From Minisyncoccota bacterium (GTDB lineage Bacteria; Patescibacteriota; Microgenomatia; UBA1400; UBA12028), in NCBI GenBank assembly GCA_016211945.1, contig JACRHV010000003.1, positions 69,631-133,630 on the forward strand: a stretch of DNA of 64,000 nt. Reading direction: 5' to 3'. The notes below the pieces were generated by a model. That model saw only the letters and a list, made by a program, of their open reading frames with translations. It made no database searches and was not told where the DNA came from. Below are positions 9,951 through 64,000 of this stretch, piece after piece. A program made the position numbers and the translations under genes. The first letter of the stretch is position 1, and every line of letters begins with the position of its first letter.

Positions 9951-11985
9951 GTGGTACTATGGTACCATGATTCGGAAGTTCACCGTCTTTTTTTTCCACG
10001 CACTTTTTCTCACTGTTCCGCTTTTTTTTACCTCAATTAATGATGAGTTGTTCGAGTTTAACAAGATCGTTCTGACGTACGCGTATACGACGATTATCGT
10101 GGGATTATGGGTAACGCGCATGATCGTTGAAAAAAAAGTGCTATGGAAAAAAACACCATTTGATATCCCTCTTGCGTTGTTTTTTATCTCACAACTCCTC
10201 TCAACTATCACCTCGATCCACCCTCATACCTCAATTTTTGGATACTATTCTCGATTCAATGGCGGGCTATTGTCCGTCATGAGTTACATTGCCCTGTACT
10301 ATGCCTTCGTGAATACCGTTGAGAAAAAGGAGGTTGGTTCGTTCATAAAAACGCTTTTGTACGCAGGCATGCTTTCAGCGTTCTACGCGTTCATTGAACA
10401 CTTTGGTCATTCTCCAAGTTGCTTCTTCATCACGGGAAAGTTCGATGTTGGGTGTTGGATTCAGGATGTGCAGACGCGTGTGTTCGGGACATTTGGACAG
10501 CCAAACTGGCTCGCGGCGTACCTCATTATGCTCATCCCGCTCGCGGTTTCAGAAACGATTCGCGCGTTTGAGATAAAAAAATCGTGGTACGCTTGGTTTC
10601 TTTTTGGCGTCGTAGGCCTTTTCTTCTCTACGCTTCTTTTCACACAGTCCAGATCTGGATTATTGGGCCTTGCGATGGGCAGCTTTGTATATGGAGTGCT
10701 CTTGATAAAACAGTGGTTCACTGACATTCAAACACGGTCATCTTTTCGACCGCTTCTTTTTCTTGGTCTCTGCTGTGCTTTTCTCGTTTTTCTTTTTGGA
10801 TCACCACTTACTCCTTCAGCAAAACAAATGCTTCAAAAGTTTCGTGCAAAACCGGCAACTGCAACGCCTTCGGCTCCTTCTCAACAACCCGCCGGAACGC
10901 AGTTGGAGGTTGGAGGAACAGAGTCCGGCGCTATTCGCGCTATTGTATGGAAGGGGGCGCTTGCGGTGTGGAAACGATATCCATTGCTTGGGTCTGGTGT
11001 TGAAACGTTTGCATACAGCTATTACAAAGACAGACCCATTGAGCACAACCTCGTGTCTGAGTGGGATTTTCTGTATAACAAGGCACACAACGAGTTTTTG
11101 AACTATTTAGCTACAACGGGAGCGGTGGGGTTAGGTACCTATCTTCTTTTGATTGGATGGGTCTATTGGTGGACGCTTCGTCACTCCGCCGATTCCCCAT
11201 ATTCCATAGCTGCATGGCTTGCGGGATACACCGCTCTTCACATCTCAAACTTCTTTGGTTTCTCTACCGTTGTGGTATCAACATTGTTTTTTCTCGTTCC
11301 AGCATTTGTCTCTGTAGAGTTCTCCATTTCTGATGCTCTGTCATCATTACCCCCATGGGAACGAAAGAAAAAGATACGGGCAAAACAAGAGCCTGTTTCC
11401 CTCTATCAGTGGAGTGTTGTTGGTCTTGTGAGCATTGGTGTGCTGTGGACGCTTCTTATTGTTGTGAACATGTGGCGAGCTGACTACGCGTTTGCGCAGG
11501 GAAAACAACTCCGCACGGCCAAACAAGGAGAGCAAGCGATAGAAAAATTGAAGGAGGCGATTAATCTTGGACCAAACGAGGCAGTATTTCACGAGGAACT
11601 CTCGCTTACCGCTTCTGAACTTTCCGCAGCCGCATATGCACAACAACAGGCAACGCCTGCTGCGGACTTAGGAGAGTTGGCGATTCGTGAATCGGATAAA
11701 ATGTTGGAATTGAACTCGCGTCATTTGAATTTTTATAAGTCCCGCGCACGTATGCTCATCACACTCTCTCAAATTGCGCCAGAGTTGATGGGTGAGGCTT
11801 TACGTGTTCTGGATCGGGCACAAGCACTTGCCCCTACCGACGCAAAACTCACATATAATAGGGCGTTGCTGACCGAGCAAGGCGGGAAAAAAGACGAGGC
11901 TATTACGTTGATGAAACAAGCCATTGATATGAAGCCCAACTACGAAGTTGCAAAGGAACAACTAAAGAGAATTGAGGGAAGGTAA
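9949..11985 (+). CDS. O-antigen ligase (Wzy_C) family polytopic membrane protein with C-terminal TPR repeats
   Basis: About 12 TM segments. O-antigen-ligase signature NKAHNEFLNYLATTGAVGLG. C-terminal ~170 aa are TPR-like (AIEKLKEAINLGPNEAVF...MKQAIDMKPNYEVAKEQL). Confidence 0.6.
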   Translation: MWYYGTMIRKFTVFFFHALFLTVPLFFTSINDELFEFNKIVLTYAYTTIIVGLWVTRMIVEKKVLWKKTPFDIPLALFFISQLLSTITSIHPHTSIFGYYSRFNGGLLSVMSYIALYYAFVNTVEKKEVGSFIKTLLYAGMLSAFYAFIEHFGHSPSCFFITGKFDVGCWIQDVQTRVFGTFGQPNWLAAYLIMLIPLAVSETIRAFEIKKSWYAWFLFGVVGLFFSTLLFTQSRSGLLGLAMGSFVYGVLLIKQWFTDIQTRSSFRPLLFLGLCCAFLVFLFGSPLTPSAKQMLQKFRAKPATATPSAPSQQPAGTQLEVGGTESGAIRAIVWKGALAVWKRYPLLGSGVETFAYSYYKDRPIEHNLVSEWDFLYNKAHNEFLNYLATTGAVGLGTYLLLIGWVYWWTLRHSADSPYSIAAWLAGYTALHISNFFGFSTVVVSTLFFLVPAFVSVEFSISDALSSLPPWERKKKIRAKQEPVSLYQWSVVGLVSIGVLWTLLIVVNMWRADYAFAQGKQLRTAKQGEQAIEKLKEAINLGPNEAVFHEELSLTASELSAAAYAQQQATPAADLGELAIRESDKMLELNSRHLNFYKSRARMLITLSQIAPELMGEALRVLDRAQALAPTDAKLTYNRALLTEQGGKKDEAITLMKQAIDMKPNYEVAKEQLKRIEGR

Positions 11986-11992
11986 AATCGCC

Positions 11993-12598
11993 ATGAAAAA
12001 ACCCATTCTTACTGTCCCCAACCCCATGTTACGTACAAAAAGTGTTGATCTGGACCTCAAAAAAGACTTGCCTCTCATTCAGTCATACATCAAGGATCTT
12101 GAAGAAACACTCGGAAAAAAGGCCAACCCCAAAGGCGTGGGCCTTTCCGCACCGCAAATCGGGAAAAATCTGCGGATGTTTTCGTCCTTCCTCCCCCCCT
12201 CCAGCAACGCCAAGGATCAGGATCGTCCAACAGAGGAAGAAAAAGACGAGGCCGTACTTGCAACCTACCTCAATCCCGTCATCGTAAACACTTCTAAAGA
12301 CAAAACATTCGGACCCAATCCGGAAGATCCTATCTTGGAAGGCTGCCTATCTATCCCACAACTCTACGGCCCCGTTCCTCGATTCTCATGGGTTACATTG
12401 CACTTTTGGACACCAAAACTTGAGGAAAAAGAAGTTGTGTTTCATGGTTTTTTTGCTCGAGTTATTCAACACGAGTTCGACCACCTTGAGGGAATCTTGT
12501 TCGTTGATTATATTCGCGAACTCAACCTCCCTCTCTTTGAACAGCAAAACAAGAAAATGATCGAGATCGATCCTACTATTATTAACGCGCTAGGTTAA
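11993..12598 (+). CDS. def: peptide deformylase
   Basis: Motifs GVGLSAPQIG, EGCLSIP and HEFDHLEG. Contains a low-complexity insertion. ATG at 11993 is preferred over the TTG at 11972; an RBS GAGGGAAGG lies upstream. Confidence 0.85.
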   Translation: MKKPILTVPNPMLRTKSVDLDLKKDLPLIQSYIKDLEETLGKKANPKGVGLSAPQIGKNLRMFSSFLPPSSNAKDQDRPTEEEKDEAVLATYLNPVIVNTSKDKTFGPNPEDPILEGCLSIPQLYGPVPRFSWVTLHFWTPKLEEKEVVFHGFFARVIQHEFDHLEGILFVDYIRELNLPLFEQQNKKMIEIDPTIINALG

Positions 12599-12602
12599 CG
12601 AT

Positions 12603-13511
12603 ATGCAGATACTTCTTGCTGGAACACCCTCCACTACCGTCGCCGTTGCACGCACACTTGTTTCAGCAAACCATACTATTATAGGTGTCCTCTGCCCCTT
12701 CCCGAAGCCTATTGGGCGTAAGCAGATTGTGACACCGTGTGCGCTGGAAATGTGGGCTCGGAATTTTTCTGTTCCGATTTTTCATGTTGATTCGAGTGTG
12801 TTGGCAGATCACAAGAACTTGGCCGAGGTGCCGAAGGCCGATGTTTTCATTGTCGCTGATTTTGGTTTCCTCATTCCACCTTGGCTTCTCTCGTATTGCC
12901 AGCATGGTGCACTTAACCTCCACCCCTCCTTGTTGCCGAGGTGGCGCGGCGCGACTCCGGTACCGTTTACGCTCTTGTTTGGCGACCGCGAAACCGGCAT
13001 CAGTATTATCCAGATGAATGAAAAGTTTGATATGGGCGCCGTCGTCGCACAACGGAAGGTTGAAATTCTTGAGGATGATACGACACCAACGCTTTTGGAT
13101 CGATGTTTTAGCGTTGGAGCACAGCTGCTTCTCGAGGTTTTGCTCGAATATGTTGGGGGAGCGTTGAAGCCTATTCCCCAACCCATATCCTCGCCAACTC
13201 CCATGACACGAAAGTTCACAAAGGAAGACGGATGTGTGCCATATGAGGCCTTGGTAGCCGCGAGACAAGGATTATCATTCGATTCCTCGCCGATCAAGAT
13301 TTTAGCCGAGTACGGCCTTCCCCAAATCCCGGTTGGGATATACCAGATGTGCCGCGGGTTGGCCCCGTGGCCTGGTGTGTGGGCTACCCTACCGAATGGC
13401 AAGCGGCTAAAGGTGTTGTCAAGTACCTTTGATGGAAAACGATGCACTCCCAATCTCGTTCAACTCGAGGGAAAAACGGCGGAAAAATACATGGGTTTTG
13501 ATAGGCTATAA
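12603..13511 (+). CDS. fmt: methionyl-tRNA formyltransferase
   Basis: N-terminal formyltransferase fold with NLHPSLLPRWRGATP. Sits directly after def, the conserved def-fmt pair. Confidence 0.85.
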   Translation: MQILLAGTPSTTVAVARTLVSANHTIIGVLCPFPKPIGRKQIVTPCALEMWARNFSVPIFHVDSSVLADHKNLAEVPKADVFIVADFGFLIPPWLLSYCQHGALNLHPSLLPRWRGATPVPFTLLFGDRETGISIIQMNEKFDMGAVVAQRKVEILEDDTTPTLLDRCFSVGAQLLLEVLLEYVGGALKPIPQPISSPTPMTRKFTKEDGCVPYEALVAARQGLSFDSSPIKILAEYGLPQIPVGIYQMCRGLAPWPGVWATLPNGKRLKVLSSTFDGKRCTPNLVQLEGKTAEKYMGFDRL

Positions 13512-13518
13512 TTGACGT

Positions 13519-14805
13519 ATTGCCTCACGTAATAATGTAACGGAACTCCATATTCGTTGCCTCATCATTTTTGTAACGATGCGTATGCATAAGTTTTGTT
13601 TGAAGTGCATGGATATTTCTTTGAAGATCCATAGGATTTAATCCTTCATAAACATGACGAAGTGTCTGCTGTTGATTTGGCTTGAGCATATCAGACTCTC
13701 GAAGTCTTTGGTATGGGGTTCGTGCTTGATCATAGGTCTTCATCACTTTTGATCCTACACGTACTTTCTTCAGCAGTTTCTGTGAGGGTTGAAAGAAGTT
13801 CACATACACCTCCACACACTTTAAAAGCTCTTGAATGATCTTAAGTTGTTCCTCTGTTTCATATCTGCCATATCCAACAAAGTTGCGTAGGACGGTGTAG
13901 TTTTTTTGCTCCACGTAGCAGTTTTCATTCTTTCTTCCTGCTCTGATTCTGGTAAATGTAATATGATTGTTTTCACAAAACCTCAGCATAATATCGTTGA
14001 TGAACTCACTCCCATTGTCTGAATCAATTCCAAGGATGGGGAAAGGGAGTCGTGTTTGGATTCTTTGTACTGCTTCATGGATTCCAAACTGTCCTTTTCC
14101 CATCACTGCTTCAAGCCCAATCCACTGGAGACAGACGTCTGTAAAGTTGAGTCCATATACATAGTGTCCTTGAGGATTTTCACCACAAAATGCGACTCCA
14201 TCAATCTCAAAGAATCCTGGTTTCTTGTCTTCCCAATCCGCAAAAGTTCTGATCTGAATCTGATTTTTTAACAAGGTTCCTGGCTTCGTCGTTGATCTTC
14301 CTTTCAACGCATAGCGCTTCTTTGTTGCAGCAAGCATACGATCAATCGTGGAGCGGCTCATGGTGAGTAGCTTTCTTCGTATGGGGGCAGTGAGTTTGAG
14401 TTCTTTGTTCTTTTCAAGGATGGGAATGAGCTCGGGGAGAAAAGGGTGGAGCCTCTTCCCACAAATCCATCCTGCTGCCAACCAACATGTCCGTAAAGGA
14501 AGAAAGACTGCGTAATCATACTGATGTGTACGCACTTGCGTTCTTTTCTTTTTCCTTCCATCACACGTGGGGTGTATTTGACCCAATACACGTCGTGCGT
14601 AACTTCTGTTGTATCCACAACTTTCAACAAACTCATCAAGTATGATCGTTTTCTCTGTCTTAGATGCGCGATGATATCGCATGCGTATGGTTGTTGTGAG
14701 TGATGCTTTTTCTCTCATAGTTAACATATGTACCCCTTATGTTTTTGGAGTACATTTTCCTATGAGGCAACGAATCGTGTTCCGTTACATTTCTGATGAG
14801 GCAAT
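13519..14805. mobile_element. insertion sequence (~1.29 kb) with ~44-47 bp imperfect terminal inverted repeats
   Basis: Left end 13519..13565 ATTGCCTCACGTAATAATGTAACGGAACTCCATATTCGTTGCCTCAT. Reverse complement of right end 14762..14805 is ATTGCCTCATCAGAAATGTAACGGAACACGATTCGTTGCCTCAT. Encloses the single transposase ORF. No clear target-site duplication seen. Confidence 0.6.
13525..14727 (-). CDS. DDE-type (rve/integrase-core) transposase
   Basis: N-terminal HTH-like region, then a D..D..E triad: FEIDGV, GIDSDNGSEF, YVEQKN. Family (IS481-like versus ISNCY-like) cannot be decided by eye. Confidence 0.75.
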   Translation of the reverse strand: MLTMREKASLTTTIRMRYHRASKTEKTIILDEFVESCGYNRSYARRVLGQIHPTCDGRKKKRTQVRTHQYDYAVFLPLRTCWLAAGWICGKRLHPFLPELIPILEKNKELKLTAPIRRKLLTMSRSTIDRMLAATKKRYALKGRSTTKPGTLLKNQIQIRTFADWEDKKPGFFEIDGVAFCGENPQGHYVYGLNFTDVCLQWIGLEAVMGKGQFGIHEAVQRIQTRLPFPILGIDSDNGSEFINDIMLRFCENNHITFTRIRAGRKNENCYVEQKNYTVLRNFVGYGRYETEEQLKIIQELLKCVEVYVNFFQPSQKLLKKVRVGSKVMKTYDQARTPYQRLRESDMLKPNQQQTLRHVYEGLNPMDLQRNIHALQTKLMHTHRYKNDEATNMEFRYIIT

Positions 14806-14852
14806 GCGATTGGTTGATTTTAATGTTATAGGGTATATAATAGTCACTTAAG

Positions 14853-15656
14853 ATGCCAAAACAACAATCTCTCGAGTCCATGTATGCTGAGAGGCAGGCT
14901 AACAATCGTTTCCATAGAAATGACGGCATTCCTCGTCAGGAATTATTACAACAAGTTCCTCAAACATTTGTTCTTACTTGTTCCAAGGCTAGTGGAAATG
15001 AAGTGTGTGCAGTTCGTTTTGCTTCTACAAAAACATTCAAAGAATTTCAATCTTCTTTCTCTGGAAAAGGGTTTAATTTTGGACCAATATATGATCGGCT
15101 TGTTGCGCAAGGATTAGTAAAGTCAAATTGTTCAAAACAAATAGCAGACGCAAACCCTCGTTTGATTACACAAAATCCTGGGGCTGAAAAATTTTGGGGA
15201 TGGGGTGATGGATTTACTCTTGAGATTATTGAAAACACATTTATTACTGTCCCCAAAGAGTGTGTTGCGCAAGGAAATACGAGCAATGCGCAAACTGTTG
15301 ATAAAACAGTTGCTCCCACTCCCGCTAAATTAGATACCGTTGCGACACAGCCTTCACATGTGGATCCTATTGTCGTTACTGCAAAAACAAATGAAGTATC
15401 GATTCCAGATTATATTACCGCTGGTATTATAGGGGGAGCTGCGATAGTTGGTGTTGCCGGAGCGATTGCAAAAAATAGTCTGGACAGACGGGCTCGTCGT
15501 CAAAAAGAATTTCAAGAAATAACTCAACAACAACTTAAGAGACAGGCAGAGACATCTGCGCGATTAAATGCTGAAGCCGTTGAAAGAGAAAGGGTTGCTG
15601 AAGAAAAAAGAAAGAAACAAGAAAAGAGGGATGAAGAGTTAAGAAAAAAAAAATAA
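14853..15656 (+). CDS. hypothetical membrane-anchored protein, probably the 5' part of a frameshifted gene
   Basis: Globular N-domain, one TM (YITAGIIGGAAIVGVAGAIA), charged coiled-coil tail. ORF ends ...EELRKKK* inside an A10 run. Confidence 0.45.
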   Translation: MPKQQSLESMYAERQANNRFHRNDGIPRQELLQQVPQTFVLTCSKASGNEVCAVRFASTKTFKEFQSSFSGKGFNFGPIYDRLVAQGLVKSNCSKQIADANPRLITQNPGAEKFWGWGDGFTLEIIENTFITVPKECVAQGNTSNAQTVDKTVAPTPAKLDTVATQPSHVDPIVVTAKTNEVSIPDYITAGIIGGAAIVGVAGAIAKNSLDRRARRQKEFQEITQQQLKRQAETSARLNAEAVERERVAEEKRKKQEKRDEELRKKK

Positions 15657-16075
15657 AGACTGGGAAAAGAGTTTCTGGTAACGTTGTAGAACATATTCTC
15701 CGTCAAGATCCTATAATAGATAAAGCTTTTGAAGATTTAAAGGCTGTTGGACTCGACCCTAAAAAAGTTTCAAGGAAAGTTTTGTTCGAGGCGTTAAACA
15801 ATGCTAGTGCTCGTCAATCTAAGGAAAATAAAGAAGAAGCGCTTATATTGGCAGAACGGAGTGGATTTATAACGGAAGAGGAACTTCTTAATCGTCTCAG
15901 TGAAAAAGGCAAGGCATTGTTCGAGACGATAAAAAATATTATTCCTCACGAAAAACCAATGTCTTCCTCTAAAAAAGGCGGGAGTTCTACATCCGTGGCT
16001 GACGGATCCGTTTCTTCAGACCCTATAGATGGTAAAGTTTTAACAGACCTTTTCAAAGGTGATTCTAATCAATAG
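15635..16075 (+). pseudogene. downstream continuation of 14853..15656 in the other frame (the annotated 97-aa ORF 15782..16075 is its tail)
   Basis: Frame is open from 15635 with a protein-like sequence (GKRVSGNVVEHILRQDPIIDKAFEDLKAVGLDPKKVSRKVLFEALNN...) before the first ATG at 15782. A +1 A in the A10 run would fuse the two into one ~407-aa protein. Confidence 0.4.
15644..15653. repeat. A10 homopolymer at the junction of two reading frames
   Basis: Ten consecutive A at 15644..15653, immediately before the TAA of the 14853..15656 ORF. The +2 frame is open from 15635 through 16075. Confidence 0.9.
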
Positions 16076-16097
16076 AAAGATTTCGCAGTTTTTCTTT

Positions 16098-17113
16098 AGA
16101 CTTGTAGCGAAATAAGATTCGTCATTCCTCTTACCCATAGACCACATCATCTCGTAAAGTTGTAGAGTGCAGCAAGGGTCACGAATGGTGTATGTGCAGA
16201 AGCAATGGTGTTTCTGTAGGTGTGCGCATGGATATTGAAGTGTTTCAACGAGGCAAACACATGTTCCACTCGGACACGGATCTGTGCAATGGTTCTGTTG
16301 GTCTTCTTTTGTCTGGACGTCAACGCTTTCCCTTTTGGTTTGCGCGTGGGATAAACCAAGGCAATAGTGGAATTAATCCGCTCTCCTCCTTGGTAGCCAT
16401 TGTCACTCATGCCGAAAGCTCCGGGTGGGGCACGGAGGAGCATGCCATCATCTTCGGCAAGTTTCTTGTCATGCCGTTTCCCCTCCACAGTCTTGGACAC
16501 GGCAAGGATCTTCATGGTTCTGGGGTTGACGAGAATCTGGTTCTTGACCGTATGCATCTTTTTCTTCCCAGAATAGTAGAACTGTTGGATGTCTGTGTTT
16601 TCGGGACGCTGAATCCGTCGTTCGGTCGCATCGACAAGAAACTCTTGCAAGTCGGGACACACGGTCAAGAGCTGTCCCATATGGGTGACCTTGCGTATGG
16701 GGAGCACAAGCGCGTGGTGGAGGGCCTGCTGAAGGATGGGCTTCATAAACTCCACCCATCGCCAGACATTCATCTTGTCCAATCCAAAGAGCACTTGGGC
16801 AAGCCGAAACGTGGGATACACCTTATAGTACAAGAGAATAAGCAAGACCAAGGATGCATCTGTTCCAAAGACACGTTTCCGTCCACCTCCAGCAGTACGC
16901 CATCTTCCTGGATGGATCGCTCGTGTTTTAAACACACAAAACAAGATGGGATGGACTGTGGCAACCACACGGTCAAACTGCTCTTTGGAAATCCCCAGCA
17001 CAGCTGGAAAACATTCTGGATGTTTGAGAAGATACTGGTACATAGGCAGGACTCCTTGATACGGGTACTGCCTATGATTGTATCCAGAAGCATGCTTATT
17101 TCGCTACAAGTCT
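16098..17113. mobile_element. IS4/IS5-family-like insertion sequence (~1.0 kb) with perfect 19-bp terminal inverted repeats
   Basis: Left IR 16098..16116 is AGACTTGTAGCGAAATAAG. Right IR 17095..17113 is CTTATTTCGCTACAAGTCT, its exact reverse complement. TTT immediately flanks both ends and is a possible 3-bp target duplication. Confidence 0.65.
16147..17043 (-). CDS. IS4/IS5-family DDE transposase (DDE_Tnp_1-like)
   Basis: 298 aa. DATERRIQRP (D), MSDNGYQGG (D), RIRVEHVFASLKHF (E in the Y..R...E....K context typical of IS5-family transposases). Confidence 0.75.
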   Translation of the reverse strand: MYQYLLKHPECFPAVLGISKEQFDRVVATVHPILFCVFKTRAIHPGRWRTAGGGRKRVFGTDASLVLLILLYYKVYPTFRLAQVLFGLDKMNVWRWVEFMKPILQQALHHALVLPIRKVTHMGQLLTVCPDLQEFLVDATERRIQRPENTDIQQFYYSGKKKMHTVKNQILVNPRTMKILAVSKTVEGKRHDKKLAEDDGMLLRAPPGAFGMSDNGYQGGERINSTIALVYPTRKPKGKALTSRQKKTNRTIAQIRVRVEHVFASLKHFNIHAHTYRNTIASAHTPFVTLAALYNFTR

Positions 17114-17388
17114 TTTGGTTACTTCGTCTCTGCCTTCACCGTTCTTATGCACGTTGTACACAACTTCACTTTGCGTTTCGCACCATCAATAAGAATATGG
17201 GCGTTATGAAGATTCGGTTTACGCAAATGACGCACGCGATTCTTCGCGTGTGACACAAGGTGTCCGATATCTGGTCCTTTGAAGCAAACTGCACAGTGTG
17301 ACATAGGGATGTATGGTATCACAGCGGTCAAAACCAGGCAAGCGGGAAATCTACACTCAAAAACTACACGCAATGCTACAATACCCTC

Positions 17389-18006
17389 ATGCTCGGCCTC
17401 CTCTTCTCCAACCCCTTCCTTTTTGCCCTTGAGGCAGTGTCGCTCATTGCCGCCCTCACTATCCATGAGTATGCTCACGCATGGATGGCGGACCGCCTCG
17501 GCGACCCAACCCCCCGCGCTCAAGGCCGCCTGAGCCTCGATCCCCGCCGCCACCTCGATCCCCTCGGCACAGTTCTCCTTCTTTTTATCGGCTTTGGCTG
17601 GGGAAAACCAGTGGAGTTTGATCCATATAATCTCCAACATCCACGCCGCGACTCTGCCCTCATCGCACTCGCCGGCCCCGCAAGCAACATCATCATCGCC
17701 GTTCTTCTCTCGTTCGCACTCCACCTACTCCCCCTCCCGGGGATCCTCGCTGCTCTTCTTGTCTTTACCATCCACATCAGCCTCGTCCTCGCTATATTTA
17801 ATCTCATCCCCATTCACCCGCTTGACGGCGGAAAAATCCTGATTGGCTTTTTGCCCAAAGAAATCGCAATGGAGTGGGATGATATGCTTCATAAATACGG
17901 CATGATTATTCTTCTTTTCCTCATCTTCCCGTTCGGGAATAGTCAATCACCTGTCAGCTATCTTGTCTCACCCATCGTTGAGGGATTATTAAAGTTACTC
18001 ATATGA
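17389..18006 (+). CDS. M50-family (site-2-protease-like) membrane zinc metalloprotease
   Basis: HEYAHAW (HExxH) within a TM helix. Second metal-binding region LDGG (IPIHPLDGGKIL). Polytopic. Confidence 0.65.
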   Translation: MLGLLFSNPFLFALEAVSLIAALTIHEYAHAWMADRLGDPTPRAQGRLSLDPRRHLDPLGTVLLLFIGFGWGKPVEFDPYNLQHPRRDSALIALAGPASNIIIAVLLSFALHLLPLPGILAALLVFTIHISLVLAIFNLIPIHPLDGGKILIGFLPKEIAMEWDDMLHKYGMIILLFLIFPFGNSQSPVSYLVSPIVEGLLKLLI

Positions 18007-18824
18007 ACCGGCCTCCGCTTCAACACAAAACTTCTTGGCAACCGGTAAGCTCGTGGTACAACAAGGCGGTCGGAGAAAGTGGACACTATTTCCACCAGCA
18101 CGTCGTTATTCCAACAACCCTGCGATTACTCGATCTTCACCCACACGACTCGCTCTTAGACTTGGCGTGCGGTCAAGGTGTTTTGGAGCGTCACATTCCA
18201 AAAGATATCGAGTATGTTGGCGTAGATGTTGCTCCATCGCTTGTAAAATTCGCGCAGGAGCATGCGGAACCAGGACATCGATTCATTACTGGAGATATCA
18301 CCCAACCACTTCCTATACAAAAACGCGACTTTACACACGCAGTAGTACTTTTAGCACTCCAAAATATCGAACATCCTCACCTTGCCCTCACTCAAGCCAC
18401 CGATCATCTCCGCCAAAACGGCAAACTCTTGCTCATCATCAATCATCCGTGTTTTCGCATTCCGCGTCAGTCAAGTTGGGGTATTGATGAGCGAAACAAA
18501 ACACAATACCGCCGAGTAGACCGATATCTTTCTCCACTGAGCATCCCCATTGCTGCAACCCCCAGCAAAGGTCAACGATCCGCGGTTACCTGGTCGTATC
18601 ACCTCCCCATTTCCGCATATGCTGAACTTTTGCGAAAAGCCGGTTTTGTGATCGAGATCATTGAGGAACTCGGATCAGACAAGGTAAGTGTTGGAACCGC
18701 AGCCAAAATGGAAAACAGAAGCTGCGCGGAGTTCCCCATGTTTATGGCGATTGTGGCGAGAAAGATAGGACCGCCGCACCCCGAGCATCTGTATAATGCA
18801 TCGGCAATGCCTGTGTCCAGATAA
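18003..18824 (+). CDS. class I SAM-dependent methyltransferase
   Basis: Motif I LLDLACGQGVL, followed by an acidic loop and motif II-like VVLLALQNIEHP. Confidence 0.6.
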   Translation: MNRPPLQHKTSWQPVSSWYNKAVGESGHYFHQHVVIPTTLRLLDLHPHDSLLDLACGQGVLERHIPKDIEYVGVDVAPSLVKFAQEHAEPGHRFITGDITQPLPIQKRDFTHAVVLLALQNIEHPHLALTQATDHLRQNGKLLLIINHPCFRIPRQSSWGIDERNKTQYRRVDRYLSPLSIPIAATPSKGQRSAVTWSYHLPISAYAELLRKAGFVIEIIEELGSDKVSVGTAAKMENRSCAEFPMFMAIVARKIGPPHPEHLYNASAMPVSR

Positions 18825-26892: not shown

Positions 26893-27789
26893 TTATATTT
26901 GAGGAACCGAGAACTCAGTGACCCATTCCGCTATCTTTTTTCCGTATTTCTCGTGTTCCATGACAAATTTAAGATGAGCCATAAAGTAATTCTCAGGATC
27001 GCCCGTTGTCATCCATTCGCCCTGCGTATGCTCGACTAACACCTGCTGTGTCTTAGCGATCTGTGTAATGGCATCCACCGTCCAAAGCTCACCGTCTTTC
27101 CCAACATTTTGTGGATTCAAATACTCAAACACGCTCGGCTTTAAGAGATACCGACCATATGACGCCAACAATGACGGCTGTTTACCCTTTTCCGGTTTCT
27201 CGATAATGTTATCGAGTTGATTTGTTGTCCCTTGTTTAAAACTAATGATGCCGTATTTATCCACAACTTCCTCAGACACTTCCTGTGCCATAATGATTCC
27301 CGCAACGCTGGGGTTCGCCTCATACATATCCACCATCACCTTGGCATCACCAACTTGACCGAACACCACATCATCACTATAGAGGACGAGAAACGCCTCC
27401 TCGGCTTCCACGTATTTTTGCGCCGAGGTTACCGGCGAACCATTGCCATACGGCAAACTGGGATCTTGTACGATCACGGTTATTTTTGGAAAGTTCAAAA
27501 CCTGCTGAACCGACTCGTATCGCTCTTCCTTGCCTTGCGCCACAAGTTGTTTACGAATACGGTTCACATTGTTATTAAAATAATCTTCATAAATCGGTTT
27601 CCCCTCCGGCGTTGCCACGATCACAATCTCCTCAATGCCAGCCTGCTGACATTCCTCAACAACAAACTGTATGATCGGACGATTGCCGAGCGGAAGCATT
27701 GCTTTTGGAACAGTTTTTGTGATGGGAAGATACCGGCTTGCAAATCCAGCGTCTGTGATAATTGCCTTTTTGACTCGAGCAGATGCCAT
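26893..27789 (-). CDS. galU: UTP--glucose-1-phosphate uridylyltransferase
   Basis: N-terminus KKAIITDAGFASRYLPITKTVPKAMLPLGNRPIIQFVVEE is the GalU nucleotidyltransferase signature. Confidence 0.8.
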   Translation of the reverse strand: MASARVKKAIITDAGFASRYLPITKTVPKAMLPLGNRPIIQFVVEECQQAGIEEIVIVATPEGKPIYEDYFNNNVNRIRKQLVAQGKEERYESVQQVLNFPKITVIVQDPSLPYGNGSPVTSAQKYVEAEEAFLVLYSDDVVFGQVGDAKVMVDMYEANPSVAGIIMAQEVSEEVVDKYGIISFKQGTTNQLDNIIEKPEKGKQPSLLASYGRYLLKPSVFEYLNPQNVGKDGELWTVDAITQIAKTQQVLVEHTQGEWMTTGDPENYFMAHLKFVMEHEKYGKKIAEWVTEFSVPQI

Positions 27790-29291: not shown

Positions 29292-30074
29292 ATGGCAAAG
29301 AAAGTAACATCAACAGAACCAAAAGAAGTGAAAGAAAAAACAGCAAAAGTGGCCAAAATCGAAAAAGTCGCAAAAAACGCAAAAAAAAAGACGAAAAAAG
29401 TCGAGGAAGTTGCGATTGTTGAGACACAGGGAGTCCCGGTTAATCCTCAGACCGGAGAACAAAAAGAGGAAAAAGCAAAAATTATTAAAATTCGCGGTAA
29501 AAAATACGTGACCGCCCGATCATTTATCGATCGAACCCGCCAGTATGGCGCAGATGAAGCTGTTGCGCTCGCAAAAAAAACACATTATGCAAAGTTTGCC
29601 GGTTCACTTGAGGCCAACCTCGTACTCCGTGGTGAAGGGGTTGATGTCGACATCGCCTTCCCCTATGCAACAGGTCGAACCGTTTCTGTGGCTATTGCAA
29701 CGGACGGGCTTCTCGCACAAGTTGAAAAAGGCGTGATCACCTTTACCACCTTGGTTGCACATCCTTCTATGATGCCGAAATTATCGAAACTCGCCCGTAT
29801 TCTTGGTCCAAAAGGACTCATGCCAAACCCAAAGAACGGAACGCTTTCTCCAGATCCAGAGAAGCGCAAAAAAGAATTAGAGAACGGCGCAGTAACGGTG
29901 AAGGCAGAGAAAAAGGCCCCACTTGTGCATCTTGTTATTGGAAAGTTGAAACAGCCTGAATCTGAACTTGTTGCCAATCTTAAGGCTCTTATGAAGGCTT
30001 ACCCTGCCGGCAAACTGGTGAAGTGCACTATTTCTGCAACCATGGGGCCTGGAATCAAGGTGAGGGTGGAATAA
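29292..30074 (+). CDS. rplA: 50S ribosomal protein L1 (with Lys-rich N-terminal extension)
   Basis: L1 core from KKYVTARSFIDRTRQYGADEAVALAKK onward. The first ~60 aa are a K/E-rich extension. Confidence 0.85.
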   Translation: MAKKVTSTEPKEVKEKTAKVAKIEKVAKNAKKKTKKVEEVAIVETQGVPVNPQTGEQKEEKAKIIKIRGKKYVTARSFIDRTRQYGADEAVALAKKTHYAKFAGSLEANLVLRGEGVDVDIAFPYATGRTVSVAIATDGLLAQVEKGVITFTTLVAHPSMMPKLSKLARILGPKGLMPNPKNGTLSPDPEKRKKELENGAVTVKAEKKAPLVHLVIGKLKQPESELVANLKALMKAYPAGKLVKCTISATMGPGIKVRVE

Positions 30075-31731: not shown

Positions 31732-31813
31732 GAATTATAATCAATTACTAGTAATATCTTGTACGATCCCATGAAAGGAGTACTAAATATATCAGAGTAT
31801 TTAGAAATACAAC

Positions 31814-32122
31814 ATGACAACGCTTACACCACCCCAACCACCAACCGATGTCACTCTTCCAACAGAAAAATCGGCGAATCAAATAACAGTGGCAGTTGCC
31901 GAAAAGGCAAAACGGAGCGTAAAAACAGCACCCAAGGTCGATCTTCAGAACCTTCCAGATCTCCTTACCATCAGCGAGGTTAGTGGGCTTCTCCGCGTTT
32001 CTCCACTCACAATTAAGCGCTGGGGAAAACGTGGAAAACTTCCGGCAATTCGTATCAATTCCAGAGGTGATAGAAGATACAAAAAACAGGCTGTGTTGTG
32101 GATGCTTGGTATGACTGAGTAG
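31814..32122 (+). CDS. excisionase/MerR-type helix-turn-helix DNA-binding protein
   Basis: LTISEVSGLLRVSPLTIKRWGKRGKLPAIRINSRGDRRYKKQAV matches the Xis/HTH_17 pattern. Confidence 0.55.
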   Translation: MTTLTPPQPPTDVTLPTEKSANQITVAVAEKAKRSVKTAPKVDLQNLPDLLTISEVSGLLRVSPLTIKRWGKRGKLPAIRINSRGDRRYKKQAVLWMLGMTE

Positions 32123-32160
32123 TAACATAACGAGACGACATGTTGTTCCGTTCGTAAAAA

Positions 32161-32958
32161 CTATTTCTTTTTTTCTTTGCTTATAAGGTGAACAAATTGC
32201 AAAAGTGCCAGCTGCCTCTTCCAACGCCACGGCTGTTGTATAAGTCTCCATAACCATTCAAATCCCAGAGAAGCAATGAGGCGCGAGGGTTGTCGCACAA
32301 CACCGGCAACTCCGTCAAGCGTTCCACCAACCACCATCGCCACCCGTACGCCACCTCGGTCCAAAAAGGCACGATTGTTCAAAAGCCATTGTTCCTGATG
32401 TGGCGCACCGTATGCTATGCAGACAACGTCTGGGCGAAATGTGGAGATATGTGAGAGAACACGATCATGCTCTTCTCGTGACTCGTGTGTAATATCAAAA
32501 GCTCCTCCGTCACTTGAAAAAACTGCGTGAGGATATTGTTTTTGTAATCGGTTCATCGCCAAATCCGCAACTCCTTTTTTTCCACCAATCAACAACACAC
32601 GGTATTTCTGTTGCTCTGCTCGTGCCATAAGGAAAAAAAACATCTCACGACCAGAAATTCTCTCTTTTATGCGTTGTACGGTTGGATGGAGGAATCGACT
32701 CGCCCACACAACGCCAATACCATCCGGAAGATTACAATCAGACATCTGCAAAAGATTGAAAAAAGATACATTGCGATGTGCCAACATGAGTTGCTCCGGA
32801 TTTGGTGTAAAAACAAGTCGAGCGCGGTGTTTCCACGCTGGATCGGTTGCTTCGAGCCATCGAGAAAACAGTGATTCACATGTAGCCAAAGAGTCGGCAA
32901 AAAAAGGAACGCCTAAAACCTTGGTTGTTCGAATCATGAAATCTCTACGTTCCATCAT
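32161..32958 (-). CDS. WecB/TagA/CpsF-family glycosyltransferase (N-acetylmannosaminyltransferase-like)
   Basis: Family motifs VLGVPF, LVFTPNPEQL, DGIGVVWAS, VLLIGG, GVGAPHQEQW-like. Confidence 0.7.
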   Translation of the reverse strand: MMERRDFMIRTTKVLGVPFFADSLATCESLFSRWLEATDPAWKHRARLVFTPNPEQLMLAHRNVSFFNLLQMSDCNLPDGIGVVWASRFLHPTVQRIKERISGREMFFFLMARAEQQKYRVLLIGGKKGVADLAMNRLQKQYPHAVFSSDGGAFDITHESREEHDRVLSHISTFRPDVVCIAYGAPHQEQWLLNNRAFLDRGGVRVAMVVGGTLDGVAGVVRQPSRLIASLGFEWLWRLIQQPWRWKRQLALLQFVHLISKEKKK

Positions 32959-59320: not shown

Positions 59321-62300
59321 ATGAGCAAAGAAGAATCTGTCCAAACCATCCAACGCTCAGAGGCATTGCTCCGGCAATTCGCCGATTTTTTGGCAGCACA
59401 ACAGCTCACTGAAAAGTCGATCCGCAACTATGTTTCAGATACACGCAAGTTTTTCGATTGGCTCGGGGGGCAAAAACCCAACGGTCAGGAAGATTGGGAC
59501 TGGATCGCTTCTATCCCCCAATCTGTTCGCGCATATCGCGCCTTTCTTCTTTCCCAGGCTGCACCTCTGGCCACCATTAACCGCCATCTCTCCTCTCTCC
59601 GCCAGTTTGGCGCTTTTTTAAACACCGTTCACCAGCTTCACCTCAAGTTGGATCACCTTCAAAACGTCTCTGTCCACGTCGAGCATGAGCAAGAAGTGTC
59701 GCATGTCCTCAACCACCAGGCTATTCACGCATTCGGTTTAGCACTTGAACATGAGCAGTGCTCACAGTCCACATGCGAAAATTACCTTGGTGATATCCGC
59801 CAATTTGCCGATTTTCTTGGAACAGAGTCGCTCTTTTCTGACCGAATAAAACCCCTTGCCGTGGAGTTTACGGGAAATTTGGCAAAAAATGGGGTCGCAG
59901 AAGCAACGATTCGACGCAAAATGGTGACCCTGAAGCGATTTTATGCGTGGGCAACCAAGTCTCACTACATCAAAACAAATGTTTTTGAATCATTCGGGGA
60001 GAAAGTCGGGCGAGTTGTTGGTGAGACTGCACAAAAATTTGTGCCGTTGGCGTTTTTTGAGAGAAATCGAGAAAACCAACAAAAAACCTCATCTTCCGAT
60101 GAGGTTTATGTCTGTGAAGAGTTACGTCTCCACGCGCTTGATAACCGTAACGAACAGTCTACCAGTCAAACAGGGATCTTGTCAAGACTGTGGCGGAGGG
60201 ATAGGGATTCGAACCCTAACCCCGCTCACGCGGAGTCACATCAGGTATCAACTGAGTTCCCAACCGTTGGGATTACCCCTCCAATTGGAATGTTTGGACC
60301 GACCACCACAGAATCGTCATACTCTCAAATTGCAGATGAAAAATCAACAACATCTTACTCTATCACCAACAAAAAACCCTCTGTTTCCAGAGGGTTTTTC
60401 AATGTAGAGTTTTCTCCCTACACAGTTGATACCTGTAACGTCAAGTCTACCAAACTTCCCCATCCCCTGTCAAGGCTCTACTCCGCCTACACCCGCTGGC
60501 CAGTGAGTTCCTATCTCCATCTTGCCGTTCTCGTTCTTTTTGTCTCGATGCTTGGGATTTTTGGCTATCAACAGTTTTTCCGTGATGCCGAGCAGAAGCT
60601 CGCTTTCCCCACCTCTCTCACCAGACCAAATCGCATTCTCTCCTTCCAGGGTCGCCTCACAGACACTGCCGGCACTCCACTCACTGTTGCAACCAACTTT
60701 ACCTTCAAACTGTATGACGCACTTACCAGTGGCAATCAGCTCTGGACATCTGGGACGTGTTCAATCACTCCGGATCAAGATGGCATCTTCTCTACTTTGC
60801 TTGGGAGTAGTTGCGGAAGCGAGATAGCCTCTGGTGTGTTTAGTGAAAATCAAAATGTATATCTCGAGGTAACAGTTGCGGCGGAGACGCTCACACCAAG
60901 ACAACAGATTGCCACGGTTGGATATGCGCTGAATGCCGAAACGCTCCAAGGCTACCCCGCTTCTGCGAGTGCGGTGGAAAATACGGTCCTTGTGATGAAC
61001 AACTCTGGTCAAGTGTTATTAGGCAACGCCTCGCCCACACTCCGTTCTACTTCTGGTACATTCGCGGTTCAGGGCAATGCGCTCAATGTGTCCACTAATA
61101 CCGGCACCGGAGGAAATATTACGCTTGCTCCGGATGGCGCTGGACAAGTGAGTTTGATTGGCGGCACCACAACACAGGATTTCATCGATATTACAAACGC
61201 GAACCTCACGACGGGAAAGTTGATGAAGGGGACGGTCGGAAATAACAATACTGGGTACAAATTTTTATCATTTGTTGGCGGCTCAACTCCCTCTGAAAAG
61301 TTCTATGTCAATGCCCTTGGAGGGGTGTATGCAGGCAACTCACTTTTTGCTCCAGTGGCGACCATTAGTGCAACGAATACGAGCGCTACACCGCTCATTA
61401 TCAACGGAACTGGAGGACAAATTTTCTCAATCGCAAATGGTGGGAACATTGTGGGTGCCGGAACCTTGACTGGATTAACAGGACTAACCTCGAGTGGAAC
61501 CATCACATTCTCAGGATTAAATACCGCAGGTGCGGTTGCGTATACACAGTCTGGTGGAGTTTTAGGAGTGACGGCACAGGGCGTGTCTGGGTACTTGTTA
61601 GGATCTGGTGGAGCTGGCACACCCACATGGATTGACCCCGCAACGGTTGGAAGCAACTATTGGCAGCTTACGAACAAGGTGATTTCGCCGGGAAACTCGA
61701 CGCATGACTTAGCGGTAGGAGGAAACGCGACAAGTTCTGCGTTGTTCCAGGTTTTTGGAAACACTGGGAATGCGACAACCGCAGGAACACTGACGTTTAA
61801 TGGGGCGGCATACTCGAATAACGTGATTGCGGCAACAAAGATGTCTGGGTTACAGATTGGAAATAGTAGCACGGGGAATATTATTTTTAATGGGGGGAAA
61901 ATAGGAGTTGGAACCGCAAACCCTCAAGGAACTCTTCATGTTGCTAGTAGTGCCAATATTGATGATCTTGTTGTTAATACCGAAGCCACAACGAATAACA
62001 TTGTTGATTCTAGTTTTGAGACTGGATTGGGGGGTTGGTACGCTACTTCAGTCAATGCCACTATTACACAATCAACTACTCAATCATATGTTGGTTCTAA
62101 AAGTTTAAAAAACGTAGCCACTGCAACAAATGAAGGCGCTTATATTACCATGTCTAGTGGATTTACTGCAGGAGTTTTAAATACTTTTTCTTCCTATGGA
62201 TATTTGGAATCAGGAACAGGTTGGCATTTGGTTTTCTTCTATTACGATGGCTCCTGGCATGCAGTTAACTCGCCTACAATAACTACTGTTGGCTCTTGGG

Positions 62301-64000
62301 TCAAGACAAGTGTTACTGTTAGTTTGCCTGCTGGAACAACCCAAATTCAACCGAGATTAGTAAGTGATGGTACGGCAACAATATATTTTGATGGCGTACA
62401 ATTAGAGGCAAAAGACCATGCCAGTCCTTATGCTGATGGTTCATTAGGATCTGGTTATAGTTGGACAGGAACTCCACATGCTTCAACTTCTATACGAAGA
62501 GCTGGGACAGTTTATGCTTATCAAGCAATTAACAGCGCTGGTGGAATAGGTGCCACTTCAGGAAGTTTATATCCAACATTACAAATTGATCAAGCTGGAA
62601 CAGGTGCTCTTTTTGTTGCCTCTGTTTCTGGAACACAAAAATTTATTATTGATAACACGGGCAATGTGGGGGTTGGGACGACAAATCCGTTGAATAAATT
62701 AAATGTTGTCGCGGACACTAACGTCTATACTAGTGCTCAATCTCTGGCCGGTTTAAGAGTTGATGATGGAACAAGTGATACGGCTTTATTATTAGGTGTA
62801 AACGCAGCTGGAGATGCGACTTACATTCAAGGTGTTCAACCACTAATATCTTGGACAAATCGTCCAATTTTATTACAGCCAAATGGTGGTAACGTCGGCA
62901 TCGGCAACACATCCCCTACCTACAAACTTGACGTCACCGGCTCTGCTTCGGTCTCTGCCAACCTCATGGCCGGTGGTCAAGTCCAACTCGGAAGATTCGG
63001 CGCAAATCCAACCGGCATTGGCGCGGGCGCGCTCTACTTCAACACCACAGACAGCAAGATTTACTACTACGACGGATCGAGTTGGTCACAAGTTGGATCG
63101 GGCGCAGGAGGAAACAATAGCCCATGGGATGAGTTAAACGGCACAATTGTCCCCAAAAACTCGACAGAAGATGTGTTGATTGGTGGTCAAGCAACAACCT
63201 CGGCAAAATTTGCGTTCTTAAATGTAAACACCGGCACACCGGTCGCAAGTTTCTCTGGAAACCTCACACTTACTCCTGCAACTTCTGCCATCATCCAAAC
63301 CACCAACATGATTCCATTGGTCATTGGCTCGGCATCAACCGGATCTATCCAGCTCTCGCCAAAAGCATCCACCGGCTTGTTCATCAACGGTTCTGGAAAC
63401 GTGGGCATCGGCAACACCGCACCAACGGTGGCACTCGACGTGACCGGCCAAGGCAAGTTCTCGTCGCTCGTTACCGCATCAAACGCACTCACTGTGACCA
63501 CCGGCCTTACGCAAGCGCTTGGTGGTCTCACGGTCTCCGGCAACAGCGTGGCGGCATCAGGACAAAACTTTGAGGCGTTTGTCACCTCTGGAACAGCGTA
63601 TGTTCAAGGGTATGATCGAGGCGGATCGGCATACATCCCACTCAACATTGCCGGTTCATACACCAAGTTCTCCAACGGAAGCGTTGGGATTGGTACCTCT
63701 GGTGCACCGGCAGAAAAACTCGAGATCAATGCTGGTGCGGCCGCAGGAGGGATTCGATTAAACGCAGATACCGGTGTTGATACGCGTTTGGTGTTCTATG
63801 AAAATGCCGTCTTAAAGGCAGGCCTCACCTACACCACAAGCGACGCAACCTTCCGCCTCTCCAATGCTGGAAGCGATATTGTGACACTCACGAGCGCGGG
63901 AAAAGTCGGCGTTGGAAACACCGCACCAGACGGTAAATTCCAAGTCACGGGTGCGGCAGTTGGAAAAGCGCTCGCCATCTTGAACGAAACTGGCGACCAA
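59321..64000 (+). CDS. giant open reading frame, 3'-truncated by the window end. Contents: N-terminal tandem integrase core-binding (SAM-like) domains; an embedded antisense tRNA-like element; a TM helix; tail-fibre/beta-helix-like repeats with a CBM4/9-like module
   Basis: Checked codon by codon: ATG at 59321 (RBS CCAGAGGAAA; in-frame TAA at 59306) to 64000 with no stop (1560 codons). The ORF track does not list it, consistent with omitting ORFs that lack a stop. Alternative model: a decayed integrase-N-terminal ORF plus a separate giant gene starting at ATG 60290 just past the tRNA-like element. TM helix VSSYLHLAVLVLFVSMLGIFGY at ~60500..60570. Confidence 0.6.
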   Translation, partial: MSKEESVQTIQRSEALLRQFADFLAAQQLTEKSIRNYVSDTRKFFDWLGGQKPNGQEDWDWIASIPQSVRAYRAFLLSQAAPLATINRHLSSLRQFGAFLNTVHQLHLKLDHLQNVSVHVEHEQEVSHVLNHQAIHAFGLALEHEQCSQSTCENYLGDIRQFADFLGTESLFSDRIKPLAVEFTGNLAKNGVAEATIRRKMVTLKRFYAWATKSHYIKTNVFESFGEKVGRVVGETAQKFVPLAFFERNRENQQKTSSSDEVYVCEELRLHALDNRNEQSTSQTGILSRLWRRDRDSNPNPAHAESHQVSTEFPTVGITPPIGMFGPTTTESSYSQIADEKSTTSYSITNKKPSVSRGFFNVEFSPYTVDTCNVKSTKLPHPLSRLYSAYTRWPVSSYLHLAVLVLFVSMLGIFGYQQFFRDAEQKLAFPTSLTRPNRILSFQGRLTDTAGTPLTVATNFTFKLYDALTSGNQLWTSGTCSITPDQDGIFSTLLGSSCGSEIASGVFSENQNVYLEVTVAAETLTPRQQIATVGYALNAETLQGYPASASAVENTVLVMNNSGQVLLGNASPTLRSTSGTFAVQGNALNVSTNTGTGGNITLAPDGAGQVSLIGGTTTQDFIDITNANLTTGKLMKGTVGNNNTGYKFLSFVGGSTPSEKFYVNALGGVYAGNSLFAPVATISATNTSATPLIINGTGGQIFSIANGGNIVGAGTLTGLTGLTSSGTITFSGLNTAGAVAYTQSGGVLGVTAQGVSGYLLGSGGAGTPTWIDPATVGSNYWQLTNKVISPGNSTHDLAVGGNATSSALFQVFGNTGNATTAGTLTFNGAAYSNNVIAATKMSGLQIGNSSTGNIIFNGGKIGVGTANPQGTLHVASSANIDDLVVNTEATTNNIVDSSFETGLGGWYATSVNATITQSTTQSYVGSKSLKNVATATNEGAYITMSSGFTAGVLNTFSSYGYLESGTGWHLVFFYYDGSWHAVNSPTITTVGSWVKTSVTVSLPAGTTQIQPRLVSDGTATIYFDGVQLEAKDHASPYADGSLGSGYSWTGTPHASTSIRRAGTVYAYQAINSAGGIGATSGSLYPTLQIDQAGTGALFVASVSGTQKFIIDNTGNVGVGTTNPLNKLNVVADTNVYTSAQSLAGLRVDDGTSDTALLLGVNAAGDATYIQGVQPLISWTNRPILLQPNGGNVGIGNTSPTYKLDVTGSASVSANLMAGGQVQLGRFGANPTGIGAGALYFNTTDSKIYYYDGSSWSQVGSGAGGNNSPWDELNGTIVPKNSTEDVLIGGQATTSAKFAFLNVNTGTPVASFSGNLTLTPATSAIIQTTNMIPLVIGSASTGSIQLSPKASTGLFINGSGNVGIGNTAPTVALDVTGQGKFSSLVTASNALTVTTGLTQALGGLTVSGNSVAASGQNFEAFVTSGTAYVQGYDRGGSAYIPLNIAGSYTKFSNGSVGIGTSGAPAEKLEINAGAAAGGIRLNADTGVDTRLVFYENAVLKAGLTYTTSDATFRLSNAGSDIVTLTSAGKVGVGNTAPDGKFQVTGAAVGKALAILNETGDQ
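60191..60282 (-). tRNA. tRNA-like element (type-II-like, CCA encoded) with anomalous anticodon arm, embedded antisense in the giant ORF
   Basis: Perfect T-arm TAGGG-TTCGAAT-CCCTA. 7-bp acceptor GGAGGGG/TCCCTCC (one G-U) plus G-CCA. D-arm TCCC-AACGGTT-GGGA. 7-bp extra-arm hairpin ACTCCGC-GTGA-GCGGGGT. The only foldable anticodon arm reads loop TTGATAC (GAT, Ile-like) with a C-U mismatch, which is abnormal for a long-variable-arm tRNA. Confidence 0.5.
61895..63952 (+). repeat. recurrent tail-fibre-like motif G-(N/K)-(V/I)-G-(V/I)-G-(T/N)-(T/A)-x-P-x-x-(K/A/T)-L-x-V-x-G in the giant ORF
   Basis: Copies at 61895..61950 (GKIGVGTANPQGTLHVAS), 62660..62707 (GNVGVGTTNPLNKLNV), 62888..62941 (GNVGIGNTSPTYKLDVTG), 63395..63449 (GNVGIGNTAPTVALDVTG), 63899..63952 (GKVGVGNTAPDGKFQVTG). 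Confidence 0.6.

Follow-up and report, generated by a model that had tools for sequence, protein, structure and literature searches.

We analysed a gene whose reading frame is broken at a run of ten adenines (A10) in the genome of a Minisyncoccota bacterium (Patescibacteriota; Microgenomatia). The DNA studied, referred to below as the window, is a 64-kb stretch of contig JACRHV010000003.1 (NCBI assembly GCA_016211945.1, positions 69,631 to 133,630 of the forward strand), and coordinates are given within it. The gene lies between fmt and rpmB with an insertion sequence (IS) on either side (Table 1). Its upstream part is an open reading frame (ORF) of 267 amino acids (aa) that ends in EELRKKK, and the frame reached from it by a -1 shift (equivalent to +2) is open from position 15635, continuing for 139-140 codons beyond the stop of the 267-aa ORF. 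The translation of this second frame is protein-like (KKKKIKTGKRVSGNVVEHILRQDPIIDKAFEDLKAVGLDPKK...) and comprises a helical C-terminal domain and a Ser-rich tail. One additional A, lengthening A10 to A11, produces a single ORF of 407 aa with the junction ...LRKKKIKTGKR..., encoding a protein of 44.9 kDa compared with 29.7 kDa for the truncated product. An earlier sequence-only reading of the window had described this arrangement, that is, a gene between two IS elements whose 267-aa ORF ends at A10 (15644..15653), followed by a convincing open frame of ~140 codons, and our analysis confirms these observations.

Both frames are open together only in the 22 nucleotides from 15635 to 15656, and a single event that breaks or restores the frame must therefore fall within them. 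The A10 run is the longest homopolymer of the window, in which no other run reaches ten; the segment around it is rich in Lys, and AAA outnumbers AAG 2:1 among the lysine codons of the genome. A run of at least ten A or T turned up in 63 of 300 mononucleotide-shuffled versions of the window (21%), and the length of the tract is in itself statistically unremarkable. The open downstream frame is not due to chance, since none of 5000 shuffles of the gene region produced 139 or more open codons. The only potential start codons in the downstream frame are a TTG at 15782 and one late ATG, and the scan for starts found no ATG, GTG or TTG between 15653 and 15782.

Table 1. Coordinates of the split gene, its signals and the flanking IS elements within the window.
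Feature	Position	Strand	Details
IS481-like element, 1294 bp	13515..14808	-	400-aa transposase ORF 13525..14727; imperfect ~26-bp terminal inverted repeats
Candidate sigma-70-like promoter, TTGATT-16 nt-TATAAT	14814..14841	+	10/12 consensus match
Upstream part of split gene	14853..15656	+	ATG start, TAA stop, 267 aa; NCBI HZA34_00560 (P0002)
Predicted transmembrane segment, residues 188-206, ITAGIIGGAAIVGVAGAIA	15414..15470	+	Kyte-Doolittle 19-residue window maximum 2.05
22-nt stretch with both frames open	15635..15656	+	AGAGTTAAGAAAAAAAAAATAA; from frame scan and sequence
A10 homopolymer	15644..15653	+	Zero-frame reading (AG)A AAA AAA AAA
Premature TAA stop	15654..15656	+	Abuts 3' end of A10 run
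Downstream part of split gene, -1 frame	15653..16075	+	ATA (Ile) to TAG 16073-16075
IS5-family element, 1016 bp	16098..17113	-	298-aa DDE transposase 16147..17043; perfect 19-bp terminal inverted repeats

The protein and its intact orthologue

The 267-aa product consists of an N-terminal domain, a linker rich in Pro and Thr, a transmembrane (TM) helix and a charged helix, all of which the truncation leaves in place while removing the 140-residue C-terminal domain. Conservation is highest at residues 31-140 of the N-terminal domain, and the first 140 residues hold four Cys that are conserved in both known members of the family. The TM segment is followed by NSLDRRARRQKEFQE, with five Lys or Arg among the next 15 residues, which by the positive-inside rule would place the C-terminal half of the protein in the cytoplasm; the Cys-containing N-domain and the linker would be compatible with an extracytoplasmic location. 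There is no N-terminal signal peptide, which makes the topology uncertain. Single-sequence AlphaFold2 models predict one long helix at residues 187-270 (pLDDT, the predicted local distance difference test score, ~80) and a C-terminal region that is also helical (277-364), both consistent between models whose overall confidence is low (pLDDT 54.5 for the complete protein, 59.5 for the C-domain). The succession of N-domain, TM segment, coiled coil and C-domain that had been proposed for the fused protein is thereby borne out. No family in Pfam, NCBIfam or PHROGs matched the protein above threshold; sub-threshold matches to DUF4407 (0.046) and to Rz-like spanins (4.5e-4 to 2.4e-3) cover the TM-plus-charged-helix segment only and are most likely compositional. 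Foldseek searches of the PDB with the low-confidence models gave no match with an E-value below 0.78.

Within the C-terminal domain, a 31-nt direct repeat with 77% identity (15782..15812 and 15917..15947) encodes LFEALNNAS and LFETIKNII. It could be an internal helix duplication, or simply chance.

Homologues were sought with the fused 407-aa sequence in a word-indexed search of 5.8 billion protein clusters, and two matches were returned. One (P0002) is the 267-aa ORF itself, deposited at NCBI as a hypothetical protein on a 137-kb contig of a Candidatus Pacebacteria metagenome-assembled genome (MAG). The other (P0001) is an intact protein of 405 aa with 74% identity over 99% of the query, and its alignment runs end to end over the break and covers both halves; the downstream part of the window gene is 78% identical in protein sequence to its residues 268-405. 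At the junction the orthologue reads ...ALKKKIIKTGKRLSG... and the window reads ...ELRKKK/IKTGKRVSG..., the slash marking the break. A comparison of orthologous loci had been put forward in the sequence-only reading as a check, and its outcome is that the sole orthologue does not terminate at this site. An exhaustive phmmer search with the 405-aa protein against 1.84 billion representatives recovered only the truncated window protein, and pattern scans of GTDB species genomes and Joint Genome Institute (JGI) metagenomes found no further orthologue. The family is thus an orphan of two members among ~15 billion public proteins, situated between fmt and rpmB in both genomes, and no in-frame variant from the strain of the window was found in the public protein collections searched.

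The orthologue is encoded on a 5.2-kb Logan contig (L001) assembled from SRR22388145, in which the gene is a single ORF at 737-1954. The contig is ~80% identical to the window in nucleotide sequence and syntenic with it, with fmt, the gene, rpmB on the opposite strand, and genes for an M50 protease, a methyltransferase and TrmB in the same order. As the intact 405-aa orthologue spans both halves, the ancestral state was a single gene of ~405-407 aa. Sequence comparison thus points to one gene rather than two, a predicted lineage-specific (orphan) single-pass membrane protein gene of Candidatus Pacebacteria. For annotation this means that HZA34_00560, entered at NCBI as a hypothetical protein of 267 aa, covers the first two thirds of a 407-aa gene, and that the C-terminal domain of this gene is in another frame and carries no annotation. 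The analysis also documents an orphan family of single-pass membrane proteins, with two members, in Pacebacteria.

Selection on the two halves was assessed from the ratio of non-synonymous to synonymous substitution (dN/dS), calculated by the Nei-Gojobori method between the window gene and its orthologue. The ratio is 0.26 for codons 1-267 and 0.20 for codons 268-407 (~0.24 for the whole), falling to 0.12 in the core of the N-domain and 0.115 in the core of the C-domain. No stop interrupts the 140 codons of the downstream frame, and no decay or relaxed constraint was found beyond the break, where dN/dS is 0.20 against 0.26 upstream. Comparably low ratios and the lack of a downstream stop indicate that purifying selection has acted on the downstream frame throughout almost the whole of the divergence between the two sequences. 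The fusion of both halves into a ~407-aa protein by one extra A, first proposed from the reading frames, accordingly has the 405-aa orthologue and purifying selection on both halves in its favour. Since constraint has been retained downstream, the break must be very recent, an artefact, or bypassed during expression; judged from the sequences, the gene, if a pseudogene, would be a very young one.

Position and reality of the break

Across the break the orthologue reads GTG GCG TTA AAG AAA AAA ATA ATA AAG ACC and the window GAA GAG TTA AGA AAA AAA AAA TAA AGA CT. The orthologue's tract is interrupted, being A7-T-AA-T where the window has A10, and relative to it the window has a net deficit of one nucleotide within 15635..15656 that creates the premature TAA. 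From this alignment the most parsimonious course would be the loss of one A in TTAAAG, giving TTAAG, together with a T-to-A substitution that joined A7 and AA. Loss inside a former A11 run, with two or three substitutions, is the alternative favoured by mutation rate, for the frequency of indels in homopolymers climbs steeply with run length. The synonymous divergence (dS) between window and orthologue is ~0.7, at which the two courses cannot be told apart; under either, A10 to A11 restores the frame (LRKKKIKTG). The indel in the A run suggested by the sequence-only reading therefore stands as to the splitting of one gene at this place by a one-nucleotide error, whereas the lost base may have belonged to TTAAAG upstream of A10.

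Bearing on the reality of the break, an independent Logan re-assembly of SRR12113407 has a 12-kb contig that matches window positions 11853..18656 without a difference in the 6804 bases compared, A10 and both IS elements among them. An exact look-up with the fmt protein found the strain in SRR12113407 only. None of the other 17 homopolymers of the window (fourteen A/T runs of 8-9 and three G/C runs of 7-8) breaks a frame; an A9 at 29381..29389, for example, lies inside the ORF 29292..30074 and leaves it intact. A scan of all ORF ends in the window for a continuing alternative frame found no other case linked to a homopolymer. The lack of any other such break argues against a systematic homopolymer error of the platform or assembler.

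One further pair of ORFs, 32161..32958 and 31748..32257 on the minus strand, overlaps by 97 nt near the A-rich sequence AAAGAAAAAAAGAAATAG. They were rejected as a second split gene, the WecG/TagA glycosyltransferase domain being complete within 32161..32958, and are probably overlapping or over-extended ORF calls.

Signals that might govern expression were examined around the start codon and the break. The promoter candidate in Table 1, proposed from its consensus match, falls downstream of the left IS and ahead of the start codon, and its hexamers recur with the same spacing in the orthologous contig at ~686-713. Within 15644..15653 there is a slippery heptamer, A_AAA_AAA, in phase for a -1 shift into the open downstream frame. 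No stimulatory RNA structure was found in 15654..15730, where the minimum free energy (MFE) has a z-score of +0.95 and 166 of 200 shuffles fold at least as well. A Shine-Dalgarno (SD)-like GAGGG at 15626-15630 precedes the heptamer by ~16 nt and has no counterpart in the orthologous contig; no properly spaced, conserved SD-like stimulator was found near the heptamer. The A10 tract thus shows no sign of an evolved frameshift cassette.

The geometry for transcriptional slippage is present, with a run of at least nine A, an immediate TAA and a continuation that is reached by one added A. Slippage on runs of nine A or T is described as general in bacteria (reviewed by Atkins, PMC5009743). In Citrobacter rodentium tssM1, where A11 is followed by a stop, 20-25% of the protein is full length owing to reiterative transcription, or transcriptional slippage (PMC4256274). 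Single indels in poly(A) tracts of Blochmannia and Buchnera are accompanied by ~30% in-frame, full-length transcripts, and in one such case the tract of the intact orthologue is interrupted by two T's (PMC3017870). The split arrangement of the window gene is not conserved, the gene being unsplit in its only known orthologue. The interrupted tract of the orthologue, the lack of stimulatory RNA structure and the lack of any other such locus in the window together leave evolved phase variation and programmed recoding unsupported.

Interpretation of the split gene

We hold, with moderate confidence, that the break is a genuine and evolutionarily recent one-nucleotide frameshift allele of one gene, that it represents the dominant genotype, and that it is probably leaky through slippage. 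A single nucleotide would have been lost within 15635..15656, either from a former run of A11 or from the TTAAAG that precedes the run, and the DNA as it stands would yield a product of 267 aa (29.7 kDa) without the 140-residue, putatively cytoplasmic C-terminal domain. Slippage of RNA polymerase on A10, or -1 slippage of the ribosome at A_AAA_AAA, neither of which the sequence-only reading had considered, would carry a minority of transcripts or ribosomes into the downstream frame and so produce the 407-aa protein. Since A runs of nine or more are slippery for RNA polymerase and A_AAA_AAA is prone to shifting, some full-length protein is to be expected whatever the origin of the break; by analogy with the cases cited, output would probably be mixed, mostly 267 aa with some 407 aa, and the allele leaky rather than null. 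The tract would also be mutationally unstable, making reversion from A10 to A11 easy. There is no indication that the site has been selected as a switch. This is an ordinary recent frameshift that involves no new mechanism, and the preferred view of the lesion is as an initial step in the erosion of the gene, or as a tolerated hypomorph, at a locus that has also received two recent intergenic IS insertions.

Several considerations weigh against this account. It depends on a single orthologue with no outgroup, too narrow a comparison to settle which way the indel went or exactly where it lies, and the equal dN/dS of the two halves fits a fully functional gene, with recoding or phase switching, equally well. 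The break is known from assembly consensus, the two assemblies probably deriving from the same read set, and at that level it could reflect a consensus error or a mixed population of A10 and A11. Leakiness in a bacterium of the Candidate Phyla Radiation (CPR) is argued by analogy.

Of the three causes put forward in the sequence-only reading, agreement between two assemblies and the lack of a frame break at any other homopolymer bring a fresh frameshift to the front, with phase variation well behind and a sequencing or assembly indel the least likely. In the last case A11 (or TTAAAG) would be the true sequence and the 407-aa gene would be intact. The break does fall at the window's longest homopolymer, the frame beyond it is without any decay, and a single metagenome sample is involved; yet no base differs between the contigs of the NCBI MAG and of Logan over 6.8 kb, and the fourteen A/T runs of 8-9 and three G/C runs of 7-8 cause no break, as expected of a short-read consensus. 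Illumina assemblies seldom carry consensus errors at A10, and we regard an artefact as distinctly unlikely. Evolved slipped-strand phase variation, in which the tract would reversibly switch the C-terminal domain, A11 or A8 being the on state and A10 the off state caught as the majority in the assembly, is unlikely, if a little easier to entertain. An uninterrupted A10 inside a gene is hypermutable, and the product is anchored in the membrane, its Cys-containing N-domain probably lying outside the cytoplasm. The downstream frame is preserved in full, and homopolymer-based switching is described as widespread among prokaryotes in two published accounts (PMC2831843, PMC1891110). Against this, the tract is not kept in the only orthologue (A7-T-AA-T in an unbroken ORF), the window has neither another frame-breaking homopolymer nor another run of at least ten, and such a run arises by chance in about a fifth of shuffles. 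The tract moreover lies two thirds into the gene, so that even the off state would yield the greater part of the protein, and the public protein collection holds no in-frame variant of the strain.

Two further explanations retain the split as a functional arrangement. Programmed recoding, by transcriptional slippage or -1 ribosomal frameshifting, would require that A10 and the stop were selected for a fixed ratio of truncated to full-length product. A geometry like that of tssM1 (a poly-A run that abuts a stop, with the C-terminal domain accessible through one added A), a correctly phased A_AAA_AAA and purifying selection on both halves speak for it, but the arrangement is not conserved in the unsplit orthologue, the downstream RNA is without stimulatory structure, and the GAGGG is both ~16 nt from the heptamer and missing from the orthologue; we think it very unlikely. 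That the halves have become two separately translated genes is scarcely credible. An AAGGA five nucleotides upstream of the TTG at 15782 could serve such a second gene, except that a start there loses the first 43 conserved residues of the C-domain, that AAGGA-N5-TTG occurs also in the intact orthologue as plain coding sequence, and that, besides the absence of start codons between 15653 and 15782, the Logan contig has no called gene at this place. Confidence in each explanation was judged independently, and the judgements need not add up to certainty. A genuine, recent frameshift remains the reading that we prefer.

Among known systems the closest parallels are the frameshifted genes of Buchnera and Blochmannia, which likewise have a single indel at an A run of nine or more in an otherwise undegraded gene, an intact orthologue with a T-interrupted tract, a small-genome symbiont setting, and an ambiguity between recent erosion and a lesion corrected by slippage (PMC3017870). 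Those genes differ in being conserved and often essential, in that some of the frameshifts are shared between species, and in that heterogeneity was measured in the mRNA, whereas the split gene is an orphan, from one strain, known from DNA alone. The tssM1 gene of C. rodentium shares with it a membrane-anchored product, a poly-A run followed by a stop, and a missing C-domain in the frame of one added A; there, however, both isoforms are made in a ratio of 3-4:1 and have been shown to be required, and a comparable site exists in a second species (PMC4256274). The window gene, by comparison, has A10 rather than A11, no homology to TssM and no sign of selection for the split. In contingency loci, such as phase-variable surface genes of Neisseria, Campylobacter and Bordetella, too, the length of an intragenic homopolymer sets the frame of an envelope protein, but such loci display tract-length polymorphism, occur as sets within a genome and usually truncate early, while the tract of the split gene is not conserved in the orthologue. 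With dnaX (A_AAA_AAG) the gene has in common an in-phase slippery heptamer of lysine codons and a need for the -1 frame. It differs in having neither a downstream hairpin nor a conserved, well-spaced SD-like stimulator, and the shift in dnaX shortens the product where here it would extend it.

On the evidence as it stands, the split gene is a further instance of a well-known event, a routine homopolymer frameshift. Were heterogeneity in tract length real, it would become a candidate phase-variable envelope protein of an episymbiont and be of moderate interest. We give little credence to the proposition that A10 and the stop form a functional recoding site which, in analogy to tssM1, sets the ratio of truncated to full-length isoforms of a lineage-specific envelope protein; if true, this would be the first such case described in the CPR.

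Flanking insertion sequences and other features of the window

The element on the left is inserted downstream of the fmt stop codon (13509-13511), ends 5 nt upstream of the -35 hexamer of the candidate promoter, and is bounded by a 4-bp target duplication, ATTG (13511-13514 and 14809-14812). Its transposase matches NCBIfam NF033577 at 7.3e-13 (48.7 bits, against a cutoff of 224) and Pfam rve at 1.5e-3 (19.2 bits, against a cutoff of 32.6), scores that mark the element as a distant relative only of the IS481 family. The element on the right occupies the short convergent spacer between the split gene and rpmB, with a TTT target duplication at 16095-16097 and 17114-17116 whose boundaries are placed to within 1 nt. 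Its transposase scores above the cutoff for DDE_Tnp_4 (PF13359; 3.1e-27, 95.6 bits against 24.8) and below that for the IS5 model of NCBIfam (NF033581; 1.5e-25, 90 bits against 140); with a DDE_Tnp_4 transposase, inverted repeats and a short target duplication, it can be assigned from its sequence to the IS5 family. An exact look-up of this transposase returned no recorded gene, yet the Logan contig that matches this part of the window lists a 298-aa gene at its position; the discrepancy is probably one of indexing and not of biology.

Both elements are absent from the orthologous locus, as an empty-site alignment shows, and each is single-copy within the window. The sequence-only reading had placed the gene in an IS-rich island, which does not hold: an island or composite transposon is ruled out, the elements being of different families, single-copy, and lodged in short intergenic spacers of a conserved def-fmt and rpmB-M50 neighbourhood. 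A 298-aa ORF at 26893..27789 was considered as a second copy of the IS5-family transposase and rejected, its sequence being unrelated.

Two different, apparently intact and recent IS elements thus lie within 3.6 kb in a small CPR genome. With the frameshift this makes three recent lesions inside 3.6 kb at an orphan gene, which is consistent with weak selection at the locus without being proof of it.

Two further ORFs were noted on the plus strand. One of 353 aa with an ATG start (16192..17253) runs antisense over the whole IS5-family transposase gene and into rpmB, and is most likely a non-coding shadow ORF. The other begins with ATG at 59321 and is open without a stop to the end of the window (59321..64000, more than 1,559 codons); its residues ~142-227 match the SAM-like N-terminal domain of phage integrases (PF02899, 1.2e-17) in two stretches, and by its sequence it would encode a giant protein with an N-terminal DNA-binding module of the integrase type.

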